48,178 nt of DNA from Bacteroidota bacterium (GCA_020048155.1 JAIFMY010000042.1:1-48178); one strand, 5' to 3'. Numbered from the stretch's first letter, positions 12,363-29,884 are shown. Translations and numbers: made by a program. The notes: generated by a model from the letters alone, not told the origin.

Positions 12363-14957
12363 TTATTTGAAAAACTGATTGAATATATCGTCGGTGAAAG
12401 TGGTATATACAGTCTGATGTCCTTTGCTCTGCTTTTTTACCTCATCGGCTATGAACATAAGTTTGTTTTTTTCAGCAGGTTTTAGATTGAGCAATACATT
12501 CCGAAACAAATAGTTGTGCATATATTTGCCGGAATAGCTAAAAGGCAGGTTGCTCATAAGGTAAAAAGTACCTGTGAACACTGGGGGGGCGGCAAGCAAA
12601 TAATTGTGCTCAGTCCTATAATTTACACTTTTGTAAGCAACCGATGCTTGATCTATTATTACACCCACAGTATCGGAACCCGCATGCCTGAAATCTGAAA
12701 TGATTTGGTTAAGACTAATGCCTTCAACCGAGATATCGCAAGATTTCTGTATGAGCGCAAGATTGGGAATAAAATAATTGATTGAGTCGAGATAAAATAC
12801 TGTTCCAGCAAAGTACAATATAACTTTGCCGCTATGCTTTTGCTGTTGCACCAATGCTTTGCGCAAAGTAAGCAGAAAATCAGCCCTGTCAGTTTGGTTT
12901 ACAATATTTACTTCGTATCCAGAGCCTTCAAACCATTCTATAAGTTCATCTTTCCGTTCGAGCGTCACATCAGAAGTCTGAAAAATCCAGACACTATTTT
13001 TCCTTATGGGGTTTGATTCTATTTTAACTTGAATTATTTCCGATTCGGTTTTTCCATAATCGTTGATAGCCTGAACCTGTATCAGGTTATTTTCTTCTTT
13101 AACCAAAGCAGTACATTCTATGATGATATCGAAACCGTATTCCGGATTTTTAGCAAAGTTTATCTGCATTTGATTATACACCAACTTATGATTTACATAT
13201 AATTGTATATTGTGCAACGGAGTAGACGAACGTATACCAAACTTCAGGTTTACCAATTTTTGGGTAGAACGGTAAGAAGCATCGATGGGTTTAATCCAAA
13301 GTACTTCGGGTGCCAACTGTGTAGGGGGGGTTTCGGTAATAAATACATTTTTACGGAAAAGACCTTTAAGGGTATCCTTTTGGTTTGTATACACCCCGTA
13401 TCCATCGTACATATCATCTTTCCAACTACCCAGATAAGATGCACCATTGCTCAGAAGTTGCAAACCAAAACCATTTCTATAATTATTTTTAAACATACCT
13501 TGAAAATAGTTTCCATGCTCATCAGTGTATCTTCCGAATCCATGAAAATTGCTCAGAAACCAAGCGCCGGAGTATTGCCAACCGCCAGATGAGATGTATT
13601 GTCCTGTGCCTTCGAAACAATTGCCACTAATGCAACCAAAAAAACCGTCGGTAGAAGCCACAAGTTTATGTTGTTTCCATATACCGTTCAAAATTCTTCC
13701 GTCGGGGTAGTGCATAGAACCCTCACCTTCTATAGTATCTTTTTTGAATTGTCCTTCAAATCTTTTGCCATCTGAAAAATAAAAAGTACCAATTCCATCT
13801 CGGTAATCGTCGCGGAATGGCCCCAGATATTTTTCACCATTTACGAATGTATGCAGACCAACGCCATGCTTTTTGTTGTTTCGCCAGGTTCCTTCGTATT
13901 CGTTTCCTGTATCGAAAAAGTTGTACCCCCATCCATTGCGTTTATCATCGAGCCAGAATCCTGTATATTTTTCACCCGAAACCCAAGTATATTCGCCAAA
14001 ACCACTATGGCAATTGCCGGTTTGGCAAGCGTTTTTCAAGGTATCTGCAACCAAATACTTTCCATTTACATAAAATCCTTTTTGAGAGTATCCGAAAGGG
14101 TAGGTCAATTCGCCAATTCCATGAGGCAAAAAAGCCAGCATCTCGCCGGTGTAAGTAGCACCATACAAAGGCGAATTGTTGCGGAACAACAAACTTCCGG
14201 TGCCTTTAGCGCAGTTTCCGGCAAGGCATGTATCGGCATGAAAGGCAATTACGATATCATCGAGCGTTTTTCCATTTTTCCACATATTTGTTTTTTCGCT
14301 CCCAGAAGCCATTTTATATGTACCAAGGCCATTGGGTAAGCCATTGTACCAATTTCCTACATAAGTGTCGCCATTTGGATACCACATGGTGCCAAAACCG
14401 TTGATGGTATCGTATAGCCAGCGACCATCGTATATCATACCGTTGCTAAAGATTTGTTTTCCATTTCCGTGGCGCCAGCTACCAAGCCATTCACCGTCAT
14501 ATACATCGCCATTTACCCATTTGTACAAACCTACCCCGGTACAGCAATTGCCTTGCAGGCAGCCAAACGAAGAGTTGCTTACACCCGAAGGCACATTATT
14601 GGTCCATGTAGCCGACATAAAAGAGGAGTCAGCATAAAACAGAGTTCCACTTCCGGCTTTCTGGCCATTTATCCAGTTGCCTGTATAAATTTCGCCATTG
14701 GCACCATACTCGGTACCAAGGCCCGCCCTGGTTCCTTTTTCAAATAACCCTATATAAATGAGTTTGTTGTCCTTTTTGAGGAGGCCTTTGCCCTCGGGCA
14801 TATTTCCTGCAAAATTGCCTTCGTAAGTATTTCCATCAGCAAGTTTAGCTATGCCATACCCATCTGCACAATTTCCGGAGATACACTGGATTTTGCTTTG
14901 GGCCGAAGCGAAGAAAGGAAAAAGAATACAAGCCAATACGAATAAATAACGGTACAT
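12363..14957 (-). CDS. Secreted MORN-repeat protein with Ig-like linker and degenerate caspase-like (C14) C-terminal domain
   Basis: Signal peptide; many YxGxWxxGxxxGxG repeats in blocks started by CxxGNCxxGxG; C-terminal VILYFAGT..NYFIP and VIIDQAS resembling caspase-fold motifs. Confidence 0.8.
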   Translation of the reverse strand: MYRYLFVLACILFPFFASAQSKIQCISGNCADGYGIAKLADGNTYEGNFAGNMPEGKGLLKKDNKLIYIGLFEKGTRAGLGTEYGANGEIYTGNWINGQKAGSGTLFYADSSFMSATWTNNVPSGVSNSSFGCLQGNCCTGVGLYKWVNGDVYDGEWLGSWRHGNGKQIFSNGMIYDGRWLYDTINGFGTMWYPNGDTYVGNWYNGLPNGLGTYKMASGSEKTNMWKNGKTLDDIVIAFHADTCLAGNCAKGTGSLLFRNNSPLYGATYTGEMLAFLPHGIGELTYPFGYSQKGFYVNGKYLVADTLKNACQTGNCHSGFGEYTWVSGEKYTGFWLDDKRNGWGYNFFDTGNEYEGTWRNNKKHGVGLHTFVNGEKYLGPFRDDYRDGIGTFYFSDGKRFEGQFKKDTIEGEGSMHYPDGRILNGIWKQHKLVASTDGFFGCISGNCFEGTGQYISSGGWQYSGAWFLSNFHGFGRYTDEHGNYFQGMFKNNYRNGFGLQLLSNGASYLGSWKDDMYDGYGVYTNQKDTLKGLFRKNVFITETPPTQLAPEVLWIKPIDASYRSTQKLVNLKFGIRSSTPLHNIQLYVNHKLVYNQMQINFAKNPEYGFDIIIECTALVKEENNLIQVQAINDYGKTESEIIQVKIESNPIRKNSVWIFQTSDVTLERKDELIEWFEGSGYEVNIVNQTDRADFLLTLRKALVQQQKHSGKVILYFAGTVFYLDSINYFIPNLALIQKSCDISVEGISLNQIISDFRHAGSDTVGVIIDQASVAYKSVNYRTEHNYLLAAPPVFTGTFYLMSNLPFSYSGKYMHNYLFRNVLLNLKPAEKNKLMFIADEVKKQSKGHQTVYTTFTDDIFNQFFK

Positions 14958-22090: not shown

Positions 22091-22098
22091 TATATTTG
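22091..22098 (+). promoter_or_regulatory. Sigma-A -7 element (TATATTTG) for the 22127-27698 operon
   Basis: Perfect TAnnTTTG about 30 nt before ATG 22127; supports 22127 over the TTG at 22049 as start. Confidence 0.7.
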
Positions 22099-22126
22099 CA
22101 GTAAAGAAACCAAAAAACATGATACT

Positions 22127-22834
22127 ATGGCTTTCGATTTAAATAAAATAAAAAGTCTTTTTGTTGTAGTGGATGAGGCACCCAAAAAAGAAGAAACAAC
22201 CCCAAAGCAAGAAGAGAAAAAAACAACAGACACCCCGAAACAAGTTGTGAATCAGAAGGAAAATTCATCTTTACGTGTTGAGAATATTCCGGAAGAAATC
22301 AAAAGTGAAGGTACTTCAAAAATAAATCAACTCATTTTTGACAATCTTACTACGGCCATAAGCAAAGCCAATTTGCCGGGCGAGGATTATCTTGAATTTG
22401 TTGATGCGCTCAGAGCCATGAAGGATATACCGCTCACAGACGAGCTAAAAATGCAAACTGTATTTGCAACCCTTAGCACCAAAGGACTGACAGTACCTAA
22501 AATACTTGAAAGTGCAGATTATTATACCAAAATTTTGGAAAACGAAAAGGCCAAATTTTACGAGGTACTCAAGCAACAGACTCACGGTCAAGTGAATCAG
22601 AAAGCCAACGAAGTGAATGTGCTCGAAAACGATAACAAACGTCTGGCCGATGAAATAGCTCGCCTAACCGAAAAAATATCGCAAAACCAGGCTAAAATGG
22701 AGCAACTTAAAAAGGATATGTCCGGAAATGAAGAAAAAATTAAATCTACAGAATCTGACTTCCTCTATACTTATGATCTGGTGGCCAATCAGATTAAAAA
22801 CAATGTTGAAAAAATCAAATCAATCAAATCATAA
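22127..22834 (+). CDS. Hypothetical protein: N-terminal amphipathic helix, low-complexity linker, helical core, C-terminal coiled coil
   Basis: MAFDLNKIKSLF; K/E/T/P-rich linker; GEDYLEF motif; heptad-rich C-terminal third. Confidence 0.8.
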   Translation: MAFDLNKIKSLFVVVDEAPKKEETTPKQEEKKTTDTPKQVVNQKENSSLRVENIPEEIKSEGTSKINQLIFDNLTTAISKANLPGEDYLEFVDALRAMKDIPLTDELKMQTVFATLSTKGLTVPKILESADYYTKILENEKAKFYEVLKQQTHGQVNQKANEVNVLENDNKRLADEIARLTEKISQNQAKMEQLKKDMSGNEEKIKSTESDFLYTYDLVANQIKNNVEKIKSIKS

Positions 22835-22847
22835 ATCATAATTACCA

Positions 22848-23849
22848 ATGATAGCCGATACTCAATCAAAATCGAAATCGTTCTGGAAACGCCCGGAAGG
22901 AATAACCGGAACCGTTTTTGTGATAGGGCTTATAGTTACTATTGTGCTATTCGCCAATCCTATTATGTTATTTATTATTAGCTTATTGCAAAACTTAATT
23001 ACCACCATTGCACTATTTGTAGTACTGGGGGTGATGCTTTATGTACTGCTCGATCCCAATTTCAGGAATCTCGTTTGGTATATGTATAAAAGTGTAATGC
23101 GCTGGATAACAGGAATGTTTGTACAAATTAATCCAGTACTCATACTTGAATCTTATATCGATTATTTGTACAAAAACCTGAAAGAAATGGATACCCATAT
23201 TGGGAAACTTAAGGGACAAGTTGCCAAATTAAGGCGCATAATAGAAGATAACCGTCGCGAGATGGAAGAAAACCTGAAAATGGCTGAAGCCGCCAAAAAG
23301 AAAAACAACATGGAATTGGTAGCCATCAATACACGCCAGTTTGGCCGTTTGAAAGAATCGAACGAAAGATATGGTGTATTGCTCGGCAAAATGGAATTGC
23401 TTTATAAGGTCTTGGCTAAAATTTATAAAAACTCAGAATACCTTATAAAAGATACCGAAAATGAAGTGCGTATGCGCAAACAGGAAGCAGCCGCAATAAA
23501 AGCCGGCCATAGTGCTATGCGCAGGGCTATGAATATCATAAAAGGTGACCCCGATAAGAAAATGATTTTCGACATGGCCACTGAAGCTCTCGTAGAAGAT
23601 GTGCACAACAAGATAGGTGAAATGGAACGCTTCATCGAACTTTCAGGGAGTTTTATCGACAGTGTAGACCTGCAGAATGGTGTTTACGAACAACAAGGTT
23701 TGGAATTGCTCGAAAAAATGGAGAAAGAAGGCGTTTCTTTCTTGCTTGGCAATACCAATATTCCCGAATTGGATGATAATAAAGATGTTGAAAAAAGCGT
23801 AGACAAAGACCTCGGAAACATTAGTTCTTACAACAACCTATTTAGTTAA
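22848..23849 (+). CDS. Membrane-anchored PspA/IM30 (ESCRT-III superfamily)-like coiled-coil protein
   Basis: Two N-terminal TM helices, then INPVLILESYI..LKEM..MAEAAKKKNNMELV, echoing PspA DP..LEQ.I..A..AL..G.E.LA. The family assignment is inferred by eye. Confidence 0.65.
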   Translation: MIADTQSKSKSFWKRPEGITGTVFVIGLIVTIVLFANPIMLFIISLLQNLITTIALFVVLGVMLYVLLDPNFRNLVWYMYKSVMRWITGMFVQINPVLILESYIDYLYKNLKEMDTHIGKLKGQVAKLRRIIEDNRREMEENLKMAEAAKKKNNMELVAINTRQFGRLKESNERYGVLLGKMELLYKVLAKIYKNSEYLIKDTENEVRMRKQEAAAIKAGHSAMRRAMNIIKGDPDKKMIFDMATEALVEDVHNKIGEMERFIELSGSFIDSVDLQNGVYEQQGLELLEKMEKEGVSFLLGNTNIPELDDNKDVEKSVDKDLGNISSYNNLFS

Positions 23850-23868
23850 CCAGCAATAGATTAACACA

Positions 23869-25404
23869 ATGAAAACAAAACTGACCCCTTTTTCTAAGCT
23901 GCTCATAGTAGTGGCCATATTGGCCAGCGTAGCTGTGGCAGTAAAATACCTGAACCTCATAGATTTCAATAAAATAACCCAAAACAATCAAGGTAGCAAT
24001 ACAACCCAGAATTTTGATGCAGAGGGTAAAACCATTCGCATAGGTGTAGTAACCTGGGGTGGATATGCAGGTGGACAATATTTCAACAAAGGCTTTAAAC
24101 CCAATTCTGAATCGCGTTACCTCAAAGAATATGGTTTCAACGTTGAATTCAAAGTAATAGATGATTTCAATGCCTCTCGCGATGCATGGAAAGCCGATGA
24201 AGTTGACTTGCTCTGGACTACCATAGATGCTTATACTACTGAAGCAGCCGGATTGGCTCAATACGACCCCAAAGTAGTGTTCCAGGCCGACTGGTCGCGT
24301 GGTGGTGATGCCATAGTGGTGCGCCGTGGTATTGATAAAGTATCGGATCTGCGTGGCAAAACAGTTGCCTTTGCTGAAATGACACCAAGCCACACTTTCC
24401 TACTTTGGATGCTCGAGGCCGGTGGTCTTAAGTATTCAGATATACAACCTAAAATTGTTGAAAGTGCTATTGATGCGGCAGACTTATTTAAAAAAGGTCA
24501 AGTGGACGCTGCTGTAGTATGGTCGCCTGACGATCAGGACTGTGTGGAAAAAGTAAGTGGAGCAAAAATTTTGCAAAACACCAAAAACGCTTCTCACATC
24601 ATAGCCGACGTATTTATCGCAAAAAAATCGTTTATTGATGCCAATAGGGTAGAGCTGCAAAACCTGATAGAAGGCTGGATGAAAGGCGCTGCCGAAATAA
24701 ATACCTCTGAAGATGCTAAGAAAGAAGCATCTAAGATACTTGCAGTTGGACTCAATATGCCTGAAGATTTTTGTTACAATGCAATCAACAATGTTCGCCT
24801 TTGTACTTATGGCGACAACCGCGTGTTCTTCAATCTCGATGGCAAAACCGATGAGGTTTCGGGTGAGGATATTTACAACCGCATGGAAATAAAATACAAA
24901 GAATTGGGCTATATCAAAGATCGTATACCAAATTGGAGAACCATTACCGACCCATCTTTCATTCGCGACATAGCTACGCTTACTGGTAACGAGCACCTTG
25001 CCGAAGGCAAAGCTACTTTTAATGAAGCTACTGCTGCCGACGAGACTTCCGAAGCCATTGCCTCAAAACCCGTTAGTATTTCTTTCCGTTCCGGCGAATC
25101 TATACTCGACGATAATGCCAAGTATATCATAGACAATGAGTTTCTGCCAATCGCCAAATCTTTTGGCAATGCACGTATACGTATTGAAGGGAATACCGAC
25201 AATGTGGGTAATTATGAAATGAACAAGCAGCTCTCGTTTCAACGTGCCAGTGCAGTGGCCAACTATCTGATAAGCGAACATCATTTCGATAAAAACAGAT
25301 TCATCATAGTAGGGAATGGCCCTGATAAACCACTTGCCGACAATAATACTGCCGATGGCAAAGCCAAAAACAGAAGAACTGATTTTCAGCTTCTGCCTAA
25401 CTGA
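23869..25404 (+). CDS. NMT1/THI5/SsuA-type ABC substrate-binding protein fused to a C-terminal OmpA-like domain
   Basis: N-terminal TM anchor; DWSRGGDAIV, DLRGKTVA, VDAAVVWSP, IADVF; OmpA_C motifs IEGNTDNVG, NKQLSFQRA, NRRTDF. Confidence 0.9.
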   Translation: MKTKLTPFSKLLIVVAILASVAVAVKYLNLIDFNKITQNNQGSNTTQNFDAEGKTIRIGVVTWGGYAGGQYFNKGFKPNSESRYLKEYGFNVEFKVIDDFNASRDAWKADEVDLLWTTIDAYTTEAAGLAQYDPKVVFQADWSRGGDAIVVRRGIDKVSDLRGKTVAFAEMTPSHTFLLWMLEAGGLKYSDIQPKIVESAIDAADLFKKGQVDAAVVWSPDDQDCVEKVSGAKILQNTKNASHIIADVFIAKKSFIDANRVELQNLIEGWMKGAAEINTSEDAKKEASKILAVGLNMPEDFCYNAINNVRLCTYGDNRVFFNLDGKTDEVSGEDIYNRMEIKYKELGYIKDRIPNWRTITDPSFIRDIATLTGNEHLAEGKATFNEATAADETSEAIASKPVSISFRSGESILDDNAKYIIDNEFLPIAKSFGNARIRIEGNTDNVGNYEMNKQLSFQRASAVANYLISEHHFDKNRFIIVGNGPDKPLADNNTADGKAKNRRTDFQLLPN

Positions 25405-25417
25405 TTTTAAAAAGCCA

Positions 25418-25530
25418 GTTTCTGCTTAATCACATGTTGAAAATGGGGTTAGGCAGAAACATCATATAATATTGTGGTACAGTGAATTGAATATGCTCTG
25501 ATAGGTTTCAATATCTTCCGGAGCATATTC
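25418..25530 (+). promoter_or_regulatory. Two intercistronic stem-loops between the binding-protein and permease genes
   Basis: GTTTCTGCTTAATC...GGTTAGGCAGAAAC (25418-25460; G-U pairs valid on the + strand) and GAATATGCTC...GAGCATATTC (25489-25530); no U-tract after either. Confidence 0.6.
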
Positions 25531-25592
25531 TAAACTTTTCAGGATTATTGCATAAAAATCAATTTAAACATTCACCTTAATCACCCAAAAAC

Positions 25593-26885
25593 ATGTTTAG
25601 AGCCTTGTTCAAAATAGGAGGGCAAATAGCAGGCAAGCAGCGGATGATGATTGAAATAATCGGATTCGTTTTTTTTGTATTCATTTGGTGGCTGGTAACC
25701 CATCCTTTTCATAGCCCAAACATACAGTACAATGCTGTTGGCGGGCAAGCACCATATAAGTTCGAGTTGAAAGGCCCTGGTGGTTTTTCATATACTTCCG
25801 ACGGAAATTCCGTTGCAGGTAGTTTGGCTACAGGTTCTTATACACTTAGTGTTACAGATGGCAACGGTGCCAAAAATTTGCTGAAACTGGATGTGAAAAC
25901 CGACTCTACCTACACCACGGTAGATACAGCAGCCAATACACCGGGTATACGTGCAGATATTTCCATCCGAAAACCATTTATAAACCCCGGAATTCTACCT
26001 TCACCTGGAGATGTACTTTATTCGTTCAAAACTTTGAGTGCTGAAAAAGTAAACGTAAAACTTTCAGAAAATTTTCAGATTAGCGACGATGTGCTTAAGC
26101 AACTAGCTAAAGACAGTATACCAACTGAAGTAATAAACAAGCTGAAACCATTGGTAGGAAAATCTTTTTCGAGCAATGATGAACTGACTACTGCATTAAA
26201 TGACATACTTACACCTGCACAAACCGAAGATTTTAGTTATCAGATAGTAAATGGCTCGTTCGTAGGCAGCTATATGGGCGTGAGCAGTTTGGTTTTCAAT
26301 ACTTCGTATTCCATCATGCTCAACATACTTGGCTATTTGTGGGCTATAGTTCTGAGCCTTATGGTAGGTTTCCTGATTGCTTTGGTACCTTTTTTCAGAG
26401 GTTTGCTCAGCCGCTATATTGATGCTGTAAGGTTTATACCGCTGGCTGCTGTCACAGGCTTATTCATAGCATGGTTTGGTATAGAACTAAACATGAAACT
26501 ACAGTTCCTTGCGTTTGGTATATTCGTATTCCTGTTGCCAGTAGTAGTGCAACGTATCGATGAAGTAGACAGGGTTTACAAGCAAACAGCTTTTACGTTG
26601 GGAGCCACCGACTGGCAAATGGTTCGTTTTGTGTACTGGCCCAGTGTTATTTCTAAACTCATAGACGATATGCGCGTGCTTACAGCCATTTCATGGACCT
26701 ATATAATAGTAGCCGAAACCGTAAACAAGGACAACGGGATTGGTGCCCTCATATTCACTGCACGTCGCCACAGCCGCCTCGATGAAGTTTTTGCACTCTT
26801 GCTGCTCATCATCATCATCGGTTTTGTACAAGACCTTTTATTTACTTGGATAGACAAAAAAGTGAACCCGCATAAATACGCATAG
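25593..26885 (+). CDS. NitT/TauT-family ABC permease with two inserted soluble domains
   Basis: ILPSPGDV, RFIPLAA, AFTLGAT (EAA loop), SWTYIIVAE. 430 aa versus the roughly 250-280 aa expected for the family. Confidence 0.9.
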   Translation: MFRALFKIGGQIAGKQRMMIEIIGFVFFVFIWWLVTHPFHSPNIQYNAVGGQAPYKFELKGPGGFSYTSDGNSVAGSLATGSYTLSVTDGNGAKNLLKLDVKTDSTYTTVDTAANTPGIRADISIRKPFINPGILPSPGDVLYSFKTLSAEKVNVKLSENFQISDDVLKQLAKDSIPTEVINKLKPLVGKSFSSNDELTTALNDILTPAQTEDFSYQIVNGSFVGSYMGVSSLVFNTSYSIMLNILGYLWAIVLSLMVGFLIALVPFFRGLLSRYIDAVRFIPLAAVTGLFIAWFGIELNMKLQFLAFGIFVFLLPVVVQRIDEVDRVYKQTAFTLGATDWQMVRFVYWPSVISKLIDDMRVLTAISWTYIIVAETVNKDNGIGALIFTARRHSRLDEVFALLLLIIIIGFVQDLLFTWIDKKVNPHKYA

Positions 26886-26888
26886 GCT

Positions 26889-27698
26889 ATGGGAGTAGAA
26901 TTTATAAATACCGATTTACCAGATATAATTGATCTGAAGGGAATTTCGCAGACATATGACGGGGGAAAAAGCTACGTTATCAACGATTTTAATTTGCTTA
27001 TTGAAGATAAGCCCGAAACTGGCCAATTTGTAGTGCTGTTAGGGCCTTCGGGTTGCGGAAAGTCTACTGTGCTCAGGTACATAGCTGGTTTGCAACACCC
27101 TTCTTCCGGCGAAATTATTATCAAAAACAAGCCGCTTTCCGATAAAGATCGTATTGGAATGGTCTTTCAGATGTATTCTTCTTATCCTTGGATGACTGTA
27201 CTCGAAAACGTAGCCCTAGGCTTGCGTTTCAAAGGTATGGGCAAGGAAGAGCGTACCCAGAAAGCTATGGATATGATTAAAATAGTTGGACTGGAAGGGC
27301 ATGAAAAGAAATTTGCAAAGTATCCTACATTATCCGGAGGCCAGTTACAACGTGTGGCTATAGCCCGCAGCTTACTAGTGAACAATGAGATTATACTCAT
27401 GGACGAACCTTTTGGTGCACTCGATACCAAAACCCGACTTACCATGCAGGATTTCATGATTGACCTGTGGGAAAAGGTAAAACCTACCATCATACTCGTC
27501 ACTCACGACATTTCGGAAGCTGTGTACCTAGCCGACGATATATATATGATGGGCACTGCACCGAGCAATATAGTTGAACATGTGGCTGTAAACTTGCCAT
27601 TTCATCGCGACCGAACCATTAAGCGCGAAAAGACATTTGTAGACTTAGTAAACTACGTGGAAGACCGAATGATGAAAATTGCAGGTGGCGAAAAATAG
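26889..27698 (+). CDS. NitT/TauT-family ABC ATP-binding protein
   Basis: Walker A GPSGCGKST, LSGGQ signature, Walker B ILMDEPFGALD, VTHD. Confidence 0.95.
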   Translation: MGVEFINTDLPDIIDLKGISQTYDGGKSYVINDFNLLIEDKPETGQFVVLLGPSGCGKSTVLRYIAGLQHPSSGEIIIKNKPLSDKDRIGMVFQMYSSYPWMTVLENVALGLRFKGMGKEERTQKAMDMIKIVGLEGHEKKFAKYPTLSGGQLQRVAIARSLLVNNEIILMDEPFGALDTKTRLTMQDFMIDLWEKVKPTIILVTHDISEAVYLADDIYMMGTAPSNIVEHVAVNLPFHRDRTIKREKTFVDLVNYVEDRMMKIAGGEK

Positions 27699-27729
27699 CT
27701 CGTTTTATGTACACAAATGAATATAAACT

Positions 27730-27768
27730 AACATCCCGAAAGTATTAAAGCTTTCGGGATGTTTTTTT
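27730..27768 (+). terminator. Rho-independent terminator closing the operon
   Basis: AACATCCCGAAAG-loop-CTTTCGGGATGTT plus T-run. Confidence 0.88.
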
Positions 27769-27811: not shown

Positions 27812-28510
27812 TCAGCTCAAAAATGCTTCTGGTTTGCCCATATCACGCCACTGATAGTCGCTGATGTCGTAACCCAGAATTTTATCGCTATTTCGCATTC
27901 GCAGGTACATGTTTATGATACTAAACTTACCTTTTTCTTCTATCATATCAAAAATGCGGTTGTTGAGTATGTGAATGCCACTAAAAGCGTATTTACGGAA
28001 AAAAGGTGAATTTATATCCGTGATTTTTTCGTTGGTGAAGGTATTCATCCAACCCCGCAAAAGCATACTTTCGTCGAAAAGCAGGTAGCGACTTGTTTCG
28101 CGGCGCTGCACAGCCAGGGTAGCAAGTGCATTGGTTTCGGTGTGCTGTTTTATAAGATTCGAAATTGGAAAATTCGTAAGCACATCAACATTATAAATCA
28201 GGAAATTGCTCGTACTATTGAGTATATCTTGCGCTTTAAGTATAGCACCACCAGTATCTAGTAGTTTGTCACTTTCATCGCTTATTACTATTTCAAGTCC
28301 AAAATTGTTGTTTTTATCCAAAAAAGATAATATTTGCTCGGCAAAATGATGCACATTAATTACAAAAGATTGTATTCCTTCGGAAGCAAGTTTCATGATA
28401 GCGAGTTCAAGCAGGGTTTTGCCCTGATAGGCGACCAAAGCTTTGGGGGTATTGCTTGTGAGCGGTCCAAGTCTGGTACCTAAACCTGCTGCGAGTATAA
28501 AAGCTTTCAT
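27812..28510 (-). CDS. Sugar-phosphate nucleotidyltransferase (MurU-like)
   Basis: MKAFILAAGLGTRL..PKAL, INVHHF, LLDTGG, DMGKPE; adjacent to an AmgK-like kinase. Confidence 0.85.
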   Translation of the reverse strand: MKAFILAAGLGTRLGPLTSNTPKALVAYQGKTLLELAIMKLASEGIQSFVINVHHFAEQILSFLDKNNNFGLEIVISDESDKLLDTGGAILKAQDILNSTSNFLIYNVDVLTNFPISNLIKQHTETNALATLAVQRRETSRYLLFDESMLLRGWMNTFTNEKITDINSPFFRKYAFSGIHILNNRIFDMIEEKGKFSIINMYLRMRNSDKILGYDISDYQWRDMGKPEAFLS

Positions 28511-28896
28511 AAACTCAATTCACTATGTATTATTGAAATATGCAAATCTTCAGAAACTGCTAGTTGAGCGGCTATCCACTCTGTAGCATAAACCGACCGG
28601 TGCCTGCCACCTGTGCAACCATAGGCTACGCTGAGGTTAGAATACTTTCGTTGCTTATATTTTTCGATGGCAGAAAGTATAATTTTAAGGGTTTGTTTCA
28701 AAAACAGATCCATTTCGGGATCATTTTTAAAAAAATCTTTAATTTGCTCATCTTTACCAGTATATCCTTTTAGACTGTCTATCAGACCCGGATTTTCAAT
28801 AAATCGGCAATCGAATACAAACCCCCCCCCGTGTCCGGATACATCAATAGGTATGCCCTTTCTGTATGAAAAACTAATCACATTTACCCTAACCAT
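28507..28896 (-). CDS. Stand-alone RapZ C-terminal-like domain protein
   Basis: SFSYRKGIP, FVFDCR..NP, GCTGGRHRSV. Confidence 0.85.
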   Translation of the reverse strand: MVRVNVISFSYRKGIPIDVSGHGGGFVFDCRFIENPGLIDSLKGYTGKDEQIKDFFKNDPEMDLFLKQTLKIILSAIEKYKQRKYSNLSVAYGCTGGRHRSVYATEWIAAQLAVSEDLHISIIHSELSL

Positions 28897-28900
28897 CGTC

Positions 28901-29884
28901 TTAGCTCAATTGATTGATTATTTTATATAATTCAGACAAATTTATATAGGTTTTTGCTGATTCGGTAACTTTTTTTAAGTTTTTCAATGCTATTTCTATA
29001 CTGCTCATAAAGTGTGGTTTACGCTCAATAATACCCCTTAGCCCATAGGCGCCTAGTGTTTGTAAAATTCTGAGTAAAGCAAACATGTAGTATTCGTGTT
29101 CGAAGGATGTGTTTTTGTTCACTTCTACAGGCAATTGCCGGCTATAAAACTCAGCCATGCGCAACCTGAAATCATCGCTAAGGTTTGCTTTTGCTTGAAA
29201 TAGCAGCGAAACTAAATCGTACCATGGATTTCCCTTTCGTCCACCCTGGTAGTCAATGAAATAAAATTTGCCGGCATGCTGCATGATGTTTCTTGCCTGA
29301 AAATCGCGGTACATAAACGATTTTAGCTCAAACCGTTGCAAATGAGCAATGAGCTTATCAAAATCTTGTTCCAGTTTCAGTTCGTTGTATGTGATATTGC
29401 ACAATTTGAGATAATTGTATTTAAAATAATTCAAATCCCACTTCATGGCCATGGCATCAAATTCCTTTACCGGATAAGCAGACTCAAACGGGAAATAGGG
29501 TAGCCCTGAGAACTGAAATTGAATGAGTTGCTCAAGAACCTGCTCATACATTCCTGCTTTTTCCGTTTCAGAAACCTGGCTGATCAAGTCTAAGAAATGG
29601 ATATTTCCCAAGTCCTCAATCATGCAAAACTTTTTGTCGGTACTCGTGTGGTATAGCCTAGCAATATGCAGGTTATATTTCTCGAAATGATGAGTAAAAG
29701 ATATATACGCTTCATTTTCGTCAGCATGCTCGTTGTACGAAACCAGAAAACTGGTACCATGCGGGTTAAAAATACGATAATACCTTTTATCAGATCCCGA
29801 AGGAGGAATAAGTTCCCATGAGTGCGCTTTTTCCTTAGTAGATTGTTCGTAAAATTCCAGAATTTGAGAGGGTTCAATATTCAT
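28901..29884 (-). CDS. APH/choline kinase-fold phosphotransferase (AmgK-like anomeric sugar kinase)
   Basis: SGSDKRYYR, EDLG, YRDFQARNIM, IDYQG, YDLVSLL, LQTLGAYG. Confidence 0.85.
   Translation of the reverse strand: MNIEPSQILEFYEQSTKEKAHSWELIPPSGSDKRYYRIFNPHGTSFLVSYNEHADENEAYISFTHHFEKYNLHIARLYHTSTDKKFCMIEDLGNIHFLDLISQVSETEKAGMYEQVLEQLIQFQFSGLPYFPFESAYPVKEFDAMAMKWDLNYFKYNYLKLCNITYNELKLEQDFDKLIAHLQRFELKSFMYRDFQARNIMQHAGKFYFIDYQGGRKGNPWYDLVSLLFQAKANLSDDFRLRMAEFYSRQLPVEVNKNTSFEHEYYMFALLRILQTLGAYGLRGIIERKPHFMSSIEIALKNLKKVTESAKTYINLSELYKIINQLS

Follow-up and report, generated by a model that had tools for sequence, protein, structure and literature searches.

The stretch of DNA analysed here, referred to below as the window, comprises 48,178 nucleotides from a Bacteroidota bacterium (GCA_020048155.1, JAIFMY010000042.1:1-48178). 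Between positions 22,127 and 27,768 it contains an operon of five co-directional genes, which encode a helical protein (gene 1), a membrane-anchored protein of the PspA/IM30 type (gene 2), a solute-binding protein with an OmpA-like domain (gene 3), and the permease (gene 4) and ATPase (gene 5) of an ATP-binding cassette (ABC) importer. We read this operon as a chromosomal representative of an envelope cassette of five genes that is widespread and mobile. We favour the reading, with a probability of roughly 0.55 for the whole, that the two halves of the cassette (genes 1-2 and genes 3-5) cooperate in maintaining the envelope.

According to this reading, the gene 2 product would reside in the inner membrane through a transmembrane (TM) hairpin with both ends inside (N-in/C-in), and its complete PspA/Vipp1-type domain would face the cytoplasm. 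By analogy with PspA, Vipp1 and LiaH, we infer that this domain polymerises on the inner leaflet through its amphipathic helix alpha0, and the polymer would stabilise or remodel the stressed membrane. Gene 1, the near-constant partner of gene 2, most likely regulates or scaffolds this polymer. Genes 3-5 would import a small solute bound by the gene 3 product, which would be held between the membrane by its N-terminal anchor and the peptidoglycan by its OmpA-like domain. Gene 3 would in this way be the element common to both halves.

Proteins of the PspA/Vipp1/ESCRT-III type are ancient membrane-repair machines, and their triggering and placement are a standing question. Gene 2 presents such a protein, which is predicted to be permanently membrane-anchored and is genetically locked to a peptidoglycan-bound binding protein and, usually, to an ABC importer. 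The cassette thereby offers a concrete case, open to testing, in which the wall and a periplasmic ligand would be linked to a membrane-remodelling polymer in the cytoplasm. It makes the placement and triggering of PspA-like polymers directly testable; its existence in itself will not surprise the specialist. The intact cassette in megaphages of 462 to 735 kb suggests a self-contained benefit to the infected cell. Experiments are feasible, since cultured carriers are known: named cultured carriers of gene 1 homologues include Hymenobacter and Ferruginibacter, and Flavilitoribacter nigricans DSM 23189 carries genes 1-2-3. The gene 2 family is moreover large, with 1623 proteins at E<=1e-3 among 6036 candidates. 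Clustered at 50% identity, it gives 1291 clusters at this threshold, 972 at 1e-10 and 514 at 1e-30.

Gene 2, gene 1 and the PspA/ESCRT-III superfamily

Gene 2 (22848..23849, + strand) encodes a protein of 333 amino acids with two predicted TM segments (residues 26-44 and 50-68); behind them, residues 72-92 are strongly amphipathic. The N-terminal motif K-S-F-W-K-R-P-E-G-x-T-G does not vary among 17 relatives and can still be recognised in phage copies. The Pfam release used contains no family covering the gene 2 family; among 67 relatives the commonest match was PF04012 (PspA_IM30), which was hit by 21 of the 67 at E<=0.01 (best E value 7.3e-8), and the next family was hit by 7. When these 67 family members were aligned with 16 canonical Bacteroidota PspA proteins in hhalign, a probability of 92.4% was obtained (E value 5.2e-7, 194 columns). 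The alignment is colinear over the whole PspA domain, gene 2 residues 79-294 corresponding to PspA residues 3-209. Further hhalign runs of gene 2 against PspA gave 78.7% with a shallow and 91.1% with a deep alignment, and a reversed-profile control gave 0.6%.

The AlphaFold2 (AF2) model of gene 2 has a mean predicted local distance difference test score (pLDDT) of 75.8, with values of about 90 or more over residues 61-220. Behind the two TM segments, helices are modelled at residues 70-94, 96-151, 155-232, 235-266 and 281-297, followed by a disordered tail; in this model they correspond to alpha0, the alpha1/alpha2 hairpin, alpha4 and alpha5 of PspA/Vipp1. A Foldseek search of the PDB returned Vipp1 or PspA at all of ranks 1-11 and then the ESCRT-III protein CHMP1B, and the top 10 matches in VIA-align were all Vipp1 or PspA. 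The VIA-align Z score was 13.3 for Vipp1 (7o3w), with a root-mean-square deviation (rmsd) of 4.5 A over 156 residues and model residues 73-228 placed on Vipp1 residues 2-157, and 12.0 for E. coli PspA (4whe; rmsd 2.7 A, 122 residues). Judged by profile and predicted structure, gene 2 belongs to the PspA/ESCRT-III superfamily as a distant member to which a TM anchor is fused. A first-pass annotation, made from the sequence alone, had described gene 2 as a two-TM, PspA-like protein, and hhalign, the AF2 model, Foldseek and VIA-align agree with it, also as to the PspA hairpin fold.

Canonical PspA is a peripheral protein that is recruited by separate membrane partners. For proteins of the PspA/LiaH type these partners are PspB/C or LiaI. 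With PspA, Vipp1 (IM30) and LiaH the cytoplasmic domain of gene 2 shares alpha0 and the helical-hairpin fold, and it is colinear with full-length PspA. It differs from PspA and Vipp1 in having its own two-TM N-terminal anchor, in falling below the Pfam cut-off and in an identity of 12-16% to the matched structures.

Gene 1 (22127..22834, + strand) encodes 235 amino acids from an ATG start; its open reading frame (ORF) is open from 22049, where a TTG provides an alternative upstream start. The AF2 model, with a mean pLDDT of 82.6 and values above 92 for residues 70-230, comprises a helix at residues 6-9, a disordered linker rich in K, E, T and P at about residues 16-62, short helices at 68-80, 88-97 and 105-117, and an uninterrupted helix of 112 residues at 123-234. 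The N-terminal helix holds the conserved peptide F/L-x-K-I/L-K-S-L-F (e.g. F-x-K-x-L-K-S-x-F followed by acidic residues), and the three-helix head (68-117) holds a conserved G-x-D-Y-x-E motif. No family for gene 1 was found in Pfam, NCBIfam, PHROGs or PADLOC. Scanning of 34 relatives returned generic coiled-coil families only, sequence matches in the PDB were likewise generic coiled coils, and Foldseek found no fold match (best E value 1.3). In hhalign, gene 1 reached 9.9% against PspA and 20.9% against the gene 2 family.

Gene 1 as an ESCRT-III/PspA/Snf7-like protein was considered and rejected on the hhalign value against PspA, the Foldseek result and the architecture of the model, which consists of a head and a single helix and not of a hairpin. 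The model is that of a monomer, and a hairpin-like oligomer is compatible with it. The first-pass annotation had spoken of PspA/ESCRT-III-like proteins in the plural; the term applies to gene 2 and does not extend to gene 1, which, as modelled, is a cytoplasmic helical protein without an assigned fold class. Some gene 1 homologues (P0270, P0272-P0274 and others) carry the precomputed Pfam accession PF28256.1. This accession is absent from the Pfam release used and a literature search for it gave nothing; a recent Pfam release may name the gene 1 family.

The importer encoded by genes 3 to 5

Gene 3 (23869..25404, + strand, 511 amino acids) begins with a hydrophobic segment at residues 7-25, which may be a TM anchor or a signal. 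The protein contains no cysteine and therefore no lipobox. Its N-terminal motif K-L-T-x-F/G-K is conserved into phage copies. The binding domain, at about residues 55-390, matches the NMT1, phosphonate-binding and SsuA kinds in Pfam above the cut-offs, and among solved structures SsuA (2x26), TauA (6ssy) and a nitrate-type protein (3e4r) come closest to it. Sixteen deeply divergent homologues from bacteria and phages keep N73, S82, S143, D147, D213 and T238, and the retention of these polar residues is consistent with a conserved pocket. An OmpA-like peptidoglycan-binding domain follows at residues 406-502 (PF00691, 64.9 bits against a cut-off of 27.2). In such domains the D and R of the TD...RA motif serve in diaminopimelate binding. 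The gene 3 domain keeps the motif TD...RA...NRR including this D and R, and its GNTDNVG...LSFQRA...NRRT aligns with GHTDNTG...LSLARA...NRRV of A. baumannii OmpA (3td3). The whole fusion of binding protein and OmpA-like domain is covered by a full-length match to the PHROG family phrog_25518.

Gene 4 (25593..26885, + strand, 430 amino acids) encodes a NitT/TauT-type permease, composed of a first TM segment at residues 18-36, a stretch of about 210 residues and a BPD_transp_1 core at residues 256-424; NrtB and CmpB are its nearest solved permeases. The N-terminal extra stretch is conserved in just 5 close relatives, at 25-38% identity. Homologues of gene 4 are 261-382 amino acids long and phage copies 264-279, and since the short homologues and the phage copies do without it, the extra stretch of about 210 amino acids is lineage-specific. 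The extra permease domains pointed out in the first-pass annotation are present in the window; as a feature of the system they do not stand, being missing from phage and many bacterial copies.

Gene 5 (26889..27698, + strand, 269 amino acids) encodes a TauB/SsuB-like ABC ATPase (ABC_tran, nearest to TauB), whose translation shows the complete set of Walker A, LSGGQ, Walker B and H-loop. The Pfam matches of genes 3-5 score above the cut-offs. From these matches and motifs, genes 3-5 are recognised as an intact type-I ABC importer of the SsuA/TauA (NitT/TauT) class. All NCBIfam scores lie below the equivalog cut-offs (SsuA_fam 81.8 of 163.5 bits, TauC 67.8 of 342, TauB 209.4 of 357), and so far below that no substrate is assignable. 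In three loci (L019, L041 and L049) a TENA/PqqC/haem-oxygenase-2-like gene lies between the homologues of gene 4 and gene 5. This insert may be a weak hint of the substrate, e.g. a thiamine-pyrimidine-type compound, or due to chance.

Among known systems, TauABC, SsuABC and NrtABC (NitT/TauT) are closest to genes 3-5, the nearest components being SsuA/TauA, NrtB/CmpB and TauB. The window differs from them in a binding protein that is predicted to be membrane-anchored and is fused to an OmpA-like domain, and in a permease with about 210 extra amino acids. For all five genes, the domain calls agree with the composition given in the first-pass annotation.

Conservation, phage copies and competing explanations

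The linkage was followed in loci fetched with gene 2 or with gene 3 and in a sample of the phylum. Seen from gene 2, 599 pattern matches in species-representative genomes yielded 557 that encode a relative; in the best 80 of these 557, the ORF cluster of gene 1 was represented at 61 loci, that of gene 3 at 20, and those of genes 4 and 5 at 12 each. Two of the 12 members of the gene 5 cluster (L027, L052) are not adjacent to genes 3-4. A second set was centred on gene 3 and consisted of the best 80 of 553 confirmed metagenome loci (50-64% identity), a biased sample. Where at least 2 kb of upstream sequence was present (n=58), genes 1 and 2 were both found at 50 loci, gene 2 only at 4, gene 1 only at 2 and neither at 2, and gene 2 stood directly 5' of gene 3 in 54 of the 58. 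Where at least 2.5 kb of downstream sequence was present (n=50), genes 4 and 5 were both found at 30 loci, one of them at 3 and none at 17. All five genes were found at 21 of the 41 loci with both flanks adequate. Gene 3 is tied genetically to genes 1-2 more tightly than to genes 4-5, and for this reason it is probably also the outside arm, for wall or ligand, of the PspA-like module.

The phylum sample comprised 251 genomes, that of the window included, with thresholds of E<=1e-10 for gene 2 and E<=1e-30 for gene 3. Gene 2 was present in 10 genomes and gene 3 in 5, and all five genomes with gene 3 also have gene 2. The five genes are colinear in G000, G167, G087 and G155; the gene 2 homologues of G087 and G155 diverge most of all (31% and 26% identity), and there too the order of genes 1-5 is kept. 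In G079, about 2 kb separates genes 3-5 from genes 1-2, whose transcription is divergent. In G071, gene 3 has a gene 2 paralogue beside it, and gene 4 is on another contig. The loci of G067, G143 and G207 are all gene 2 loci, and five of the six include gene 1; these three genomes lack gene 3, and gene 4 was not found in them at E<=1e-10. Since gene 4 is kept in G071 and gave no match in genomes without gene 3, gene 3 and the transporter go together at the genome level. The linkage of genes 1-2 to the ABC genes, on which the first-pass annotation had built, holds in many distant relatives. Further genes that recur beside genes 1-2 (GT2, arginine deiminase, FolD, GNAT, beta-lactamase and others) were considered as partners and set aside; they are unrelated housekeeping genes and have the look of lineage synteny.

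Phages carry the cassette as well. An Atlas cluster near gene 2 is 52% viral. IMG/VR contributed five loci (L115-L119), with homing endonucleases and Nudix hydrolases among the neighbours. In one of them and its truncated twin (L116, L117), an AAA ATPase gene (PF00004) is followed by genes 1-5; a 154-kb contig (L118) has genes 1-5 at 26-32% identity, and L115 and L119 have genes 1-2 only. Among GenBank phages, gene 3 matched 26 records. In 20 of these the match spans 80% or more of gene 3; they comprise 15 Prevotella Lak megaphages, LR756501, LR756503, two records of Bacillus phage G and a fragment. For gene 2 there were 16 matching records, from the 15 Lak phages and Ralstonia phage RsoM2USA. 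Six GenBank phage records were examined in detail. Lak-A1 carries genes 1-5 in order, four ORFs 3' of a terminase-like gene, and LR756501 (735 kb) and LR756500 (462 kb) likewise carry genes 1-5 in order. LR756511 has several gene 3-like genes and gene 4, with no gene 1 or 2 within 6 kb. In Bacillus phage G (L120), which has a Gram-positive host, gene 4, gene 5 and two gene 3-like genes correspond to gp243, gp245, gp249 and gp250, and neither gene 1 nor gene 2 is detectable. Its gp246-gp248 belong to no family, and in both gene 3 paralogues the D of the OmpA TD motif is replaced. In RsoM2USA (L121; RsoM2USA_52 to _55), the gene behind genes 1-2 encodes an NMT1_3 (TAXI-like) binding protein that lacks an OmpA domain, and there are no ABC genes within 7 kb. 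The first-pass annotation had also considered a role in phage defence. This finds no support: PADLOC-DB 2.0 gave domain-level matches only, to ZorB by way of the OmpA domain and to mad3 or PtuA by way of the ABC ATPase, and genes 1, 2 and 4 had no match; phages themselves, moreover, carry the cassette.

Several observations weigh against the favoured reading. For gene 2 itself, the Pfam match to PF04012 has an E value of 9e-4 and 19.4 bits, below the gathering score of 33.9 bits. The Foldseek scores are modest, with a best E value of 6.6e-4 and a single match at E<=0.001, and unrelated helical hairpins reach Z 11-12 in VIA-align, just under the Vipp1/PspA rows, so that Z alone does not discriminate. 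Searches of PDB sequences with the single gene 2 sequence and with two profiles gave no significant PspA or Vipp1 match (CHMP1B at an E value of about 2.5). Longer proteins were examined for fused forms of gene 2 and none was found, an observation that carries little weight. The genome also encodes a canonical PspA (contig C191:34061-34744, 135 bits; its neighbours are an XRE-type helix-turn-helix gene, a DUF4907 gene and a rhomboid gene), so that gene 2 need not be the main membrane-repair protein. The linkage, too, is not obligatory. Of the loci fetched with gene 2 from genome and viral contigs, 89 had enough room downstream, and gene 3 is adjacent in 31 of them and not in 58; on a FastTree tree at least 14 changes in the adjacency of genes 2 and 3 are needed. 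G131 has two gene 1-2 pairs, and its genes 3-5 are linked to neither; two metagenome loci (L163, L176) have genes 1, 3, 4 and 5 without gene 2, in L163 in the order DEAD-box helicase, gene 1, gene 3, gene 4, gene 5.

The 58 of 89 loci in which genes 1-2 stand alone speak for mere co-regulation, in which an ordinary sulfonate/taurine-type nutrient importer with a wall-bound binding protein (genes 3-5) and an independent PspA-like stress pair are needed under the same condition, e.g. osmotic or nutrient stress, and are not coupled. All transporter parts are canonical and intact, genes 3-5 stand alone in one genome, and hairpins separate genes 1-3 from genes 4-5. Yet gene 3 follows gene 2 directly in 54 of 58 loci and precedes genes 4 and 5 in 30 of 50, in the 251 genomes it never occurs without gene 2, and the five-gene order survives to 26-31% identity and transfer into phages of different lineages. 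We regard co-regulation as the strongest of the alternatives, and as improbable.

Somewhat less probable still is a role of gene 3 mainly as a trans-envelope sensor. Fixed both in the membrane and to the peptidoglycan, it would signal the occupancy of its ligand site or the distance between membrane and wall by way of its TM helix, and the TM hairpin of gene 2 would receive the signal and gate the polymer, with permease and ATPase dispensable. The 17 of 50 loci that have genes 1-2-3 and no permease or ATPase within at least 2.5 kb are in keeping with it, as are the N-terminal motifs of genes 3 and 2, conserved into phage copies, and the RsoM2USA locus, in which genes 1-2 adjoin a different binding protein and ABC genes are missing nearby. 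It is opposed by G071, where gene 2 paralogue and gene 3 have no permease nearby and a gene 4 orthologue is nevertheless kept elsewhere, and by the missing gene 4 match in genomes that lack gene 3.

Least probable is a phage-derived takeover or fitness module, primarily a gene set of giant phages, that keeps the membrane of the infected cell energised and imports a solute in long infections, the chromosomal copies being domesticated: complete cassettes in Lak-A1, LR756501, LR756500 and two IMG/VR contigs, the PHROG family spanning the whole binding-protein fusion and the Atlas cluster with its 52% of viral members speak for it, but the window neighbours are ordinary chromosomal genes, the bacterial copies are numerous and diverse, and the gene 2 tree built with FastTree, in which the phage rows have long branches and are dispersed, points to no direction of transfer between phage and host.

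A further reading, for which we see only a small chance, is a trans-envelope device with gene 3 as its outside arm. Gene 3, anchored in the membrane beside the TM hairpin of gene 2 and clamped to the peptidoglycan, might respond to a bound ligand or to the distance between membrane and wall, and in response an ESCRT-III-like polymer on the cytoplasmic face would be assembled or taken apart under the control of gene 1. It would be a portable device common to Bacteroidota and the largest known phages, and it would serve the latter in preserving an intact, energised host membrane in a long infection. That the ABC module senses wall-membrane spacing or powers ATP-driven assembly, as the first-pass annotation had suggested, is pure conjecture.

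Operons of this type have been described by comparative genomics as PspA/TM-Snf7/AAA+/ABC/PBPB-OmpA, and a link of membrane remodelling with solute transport was proposed (Ravi et al. 2024, mSystems, PMC11237479). The window operon has the arrangement described there, the AAA+ ATPase apart; it contains no AAA+ gene, and the whole genome was not searched for one. Among the loci examined here, a PF00004 AAA+ gene stands beside the cassette in L116/L117 only. Unlike in the type as described by Ravi et al., the second helical protein of the window operon, gene 1, is not detectably ESCRT-III-like. Phage copies go unmentioned in that paper; the terms 'bacteriophage' and 'huge phage' occur 0 times each in its main text.

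In huge phages, complete ABC systems of binding protein, ATPase and permease were found beside 15 of 189 pspA genes, and cooperation in mitigating membrane stress was suggested (bioRxiv 10.64898/2026.10.24.761521). The passages of that preprint considered here mention neither the OmpA fusion nor the coiled-coil partner nor chromosomal counterparts in Bacteroidota, and its pspA set was defined by best match to PF04012, which the gene 2 family often misses. A ProX-like binding protein is present in some archaeal 'Meth_adaptin' ESCRT loci (Makarova et al. 2024, PMC11188069). These loci resemble the cassette in that a system of the ESCRT-III type is genetically linked to an ABC-type solute-binding protein; they differ in the domain of life, the class of binding protein and the partners (Vps4, adaptin-like), and have no OmpA domain. 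On what the paper describes of them, they are a parallel and not a relative of the cassette. The part of Popp et al. 2022 that was considered contains nothing specific to the cassette. A literature search found no experimental study of such a system. The cassette is hence of a kind already described by computation and experimentally untouched; the view of the first-pass annotation that no system of this composition has been characterised agrees with the literature found, and its novelty does not hold at the level of computational description.

Transcription signals and chromosomal setting

The layout given in the first-pass annotation, with five co-directional genes, one promoter and one terminator, was found again. 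The gaps between genes 1-5 are, in order, 13, 19, 188 and 3 nt. A promoter-like -7 box, TATATTTG (22091..22098, + strand), lies 28 nt 5' of the gene 1 ATG and agrees with TAnnTTTG, which we take to be the Bacteroidetes -7 consensus. It is the sole copy on the + strand from 22091 to 27768, and none occurs inside the operon or in the gap between genes 3 and 4. In the window as a whole the motif is frequent (85 copies observed against 60.7 expected from shuffles), so that TATATTTG alone is weak evidence, merely consistent with a promoter. A scan for sigma-70-type promoters returned fewer sites than in shuffles and is uninformative for this phylum. At the end of the operon, an intrinsic terminator-like hairpin (27730..27763, + strand; 14 pairs, 6 of them G-C, then a T run) forms on both strands and is common to the operon end and a convergent gene.

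The 188-nt gap between genes 3 and 4 (25405-25592) contains two strong hairpins at 25418-25460 and 25489-25530 (+ strand), a probable attenuator or mRNA-stabilising element. Its minimum free energy is -52.2 kcal/mol (z -5.2), and 0 of 200 shuffles were equally stable. In five relatives with a long enough gap, strong stems were found in four: L010 and L134 have stems with a T run, those of L001 and L005 are strong, and L004 has none. An Rfam scan of the operon gave nothing credible, with no family matching the gap hairpins, and a search of the whole genome for the hairpins as a repeated element returned the self-match only. From the predicted folding, the simplest reading is that attenuation or a stabilised mRNA raises the expression of genes 1-3 above that of genes 4-5. 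The presence of strong hairpins here and in relatives makes unequal expression of genes 1-3 and genes 4-5 probable, and points to graded expression within the operon.

The genes flanking the operon encode an ADP-forming acyl-CoA synthetase, a hybrid histidine kinase, a beta-propeller protein, a nucleotidyl transferase and an APH-type kinase. They are ordinary chromosomal genes, and no phage hallmarks were found among the neighbours of the operon in the window. Convergent to the operon, at 27812-29884 on the - strand, lie the genes for the nucleotidyl transferase, a protein with a RapZ C-terminal domain and the APH-type kinase. The nucleotidyl transferase and the kinase presumably recall the MurU/AmgK pair of N-acetylmuramic acid (MurNAc) recycling; these convergent neighbours are not kept beside the cassette in relatives. 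Further away in the window, at 12363-14957 on the - strand, a protein of 864 amino acids with many MORN repeats is encoded.

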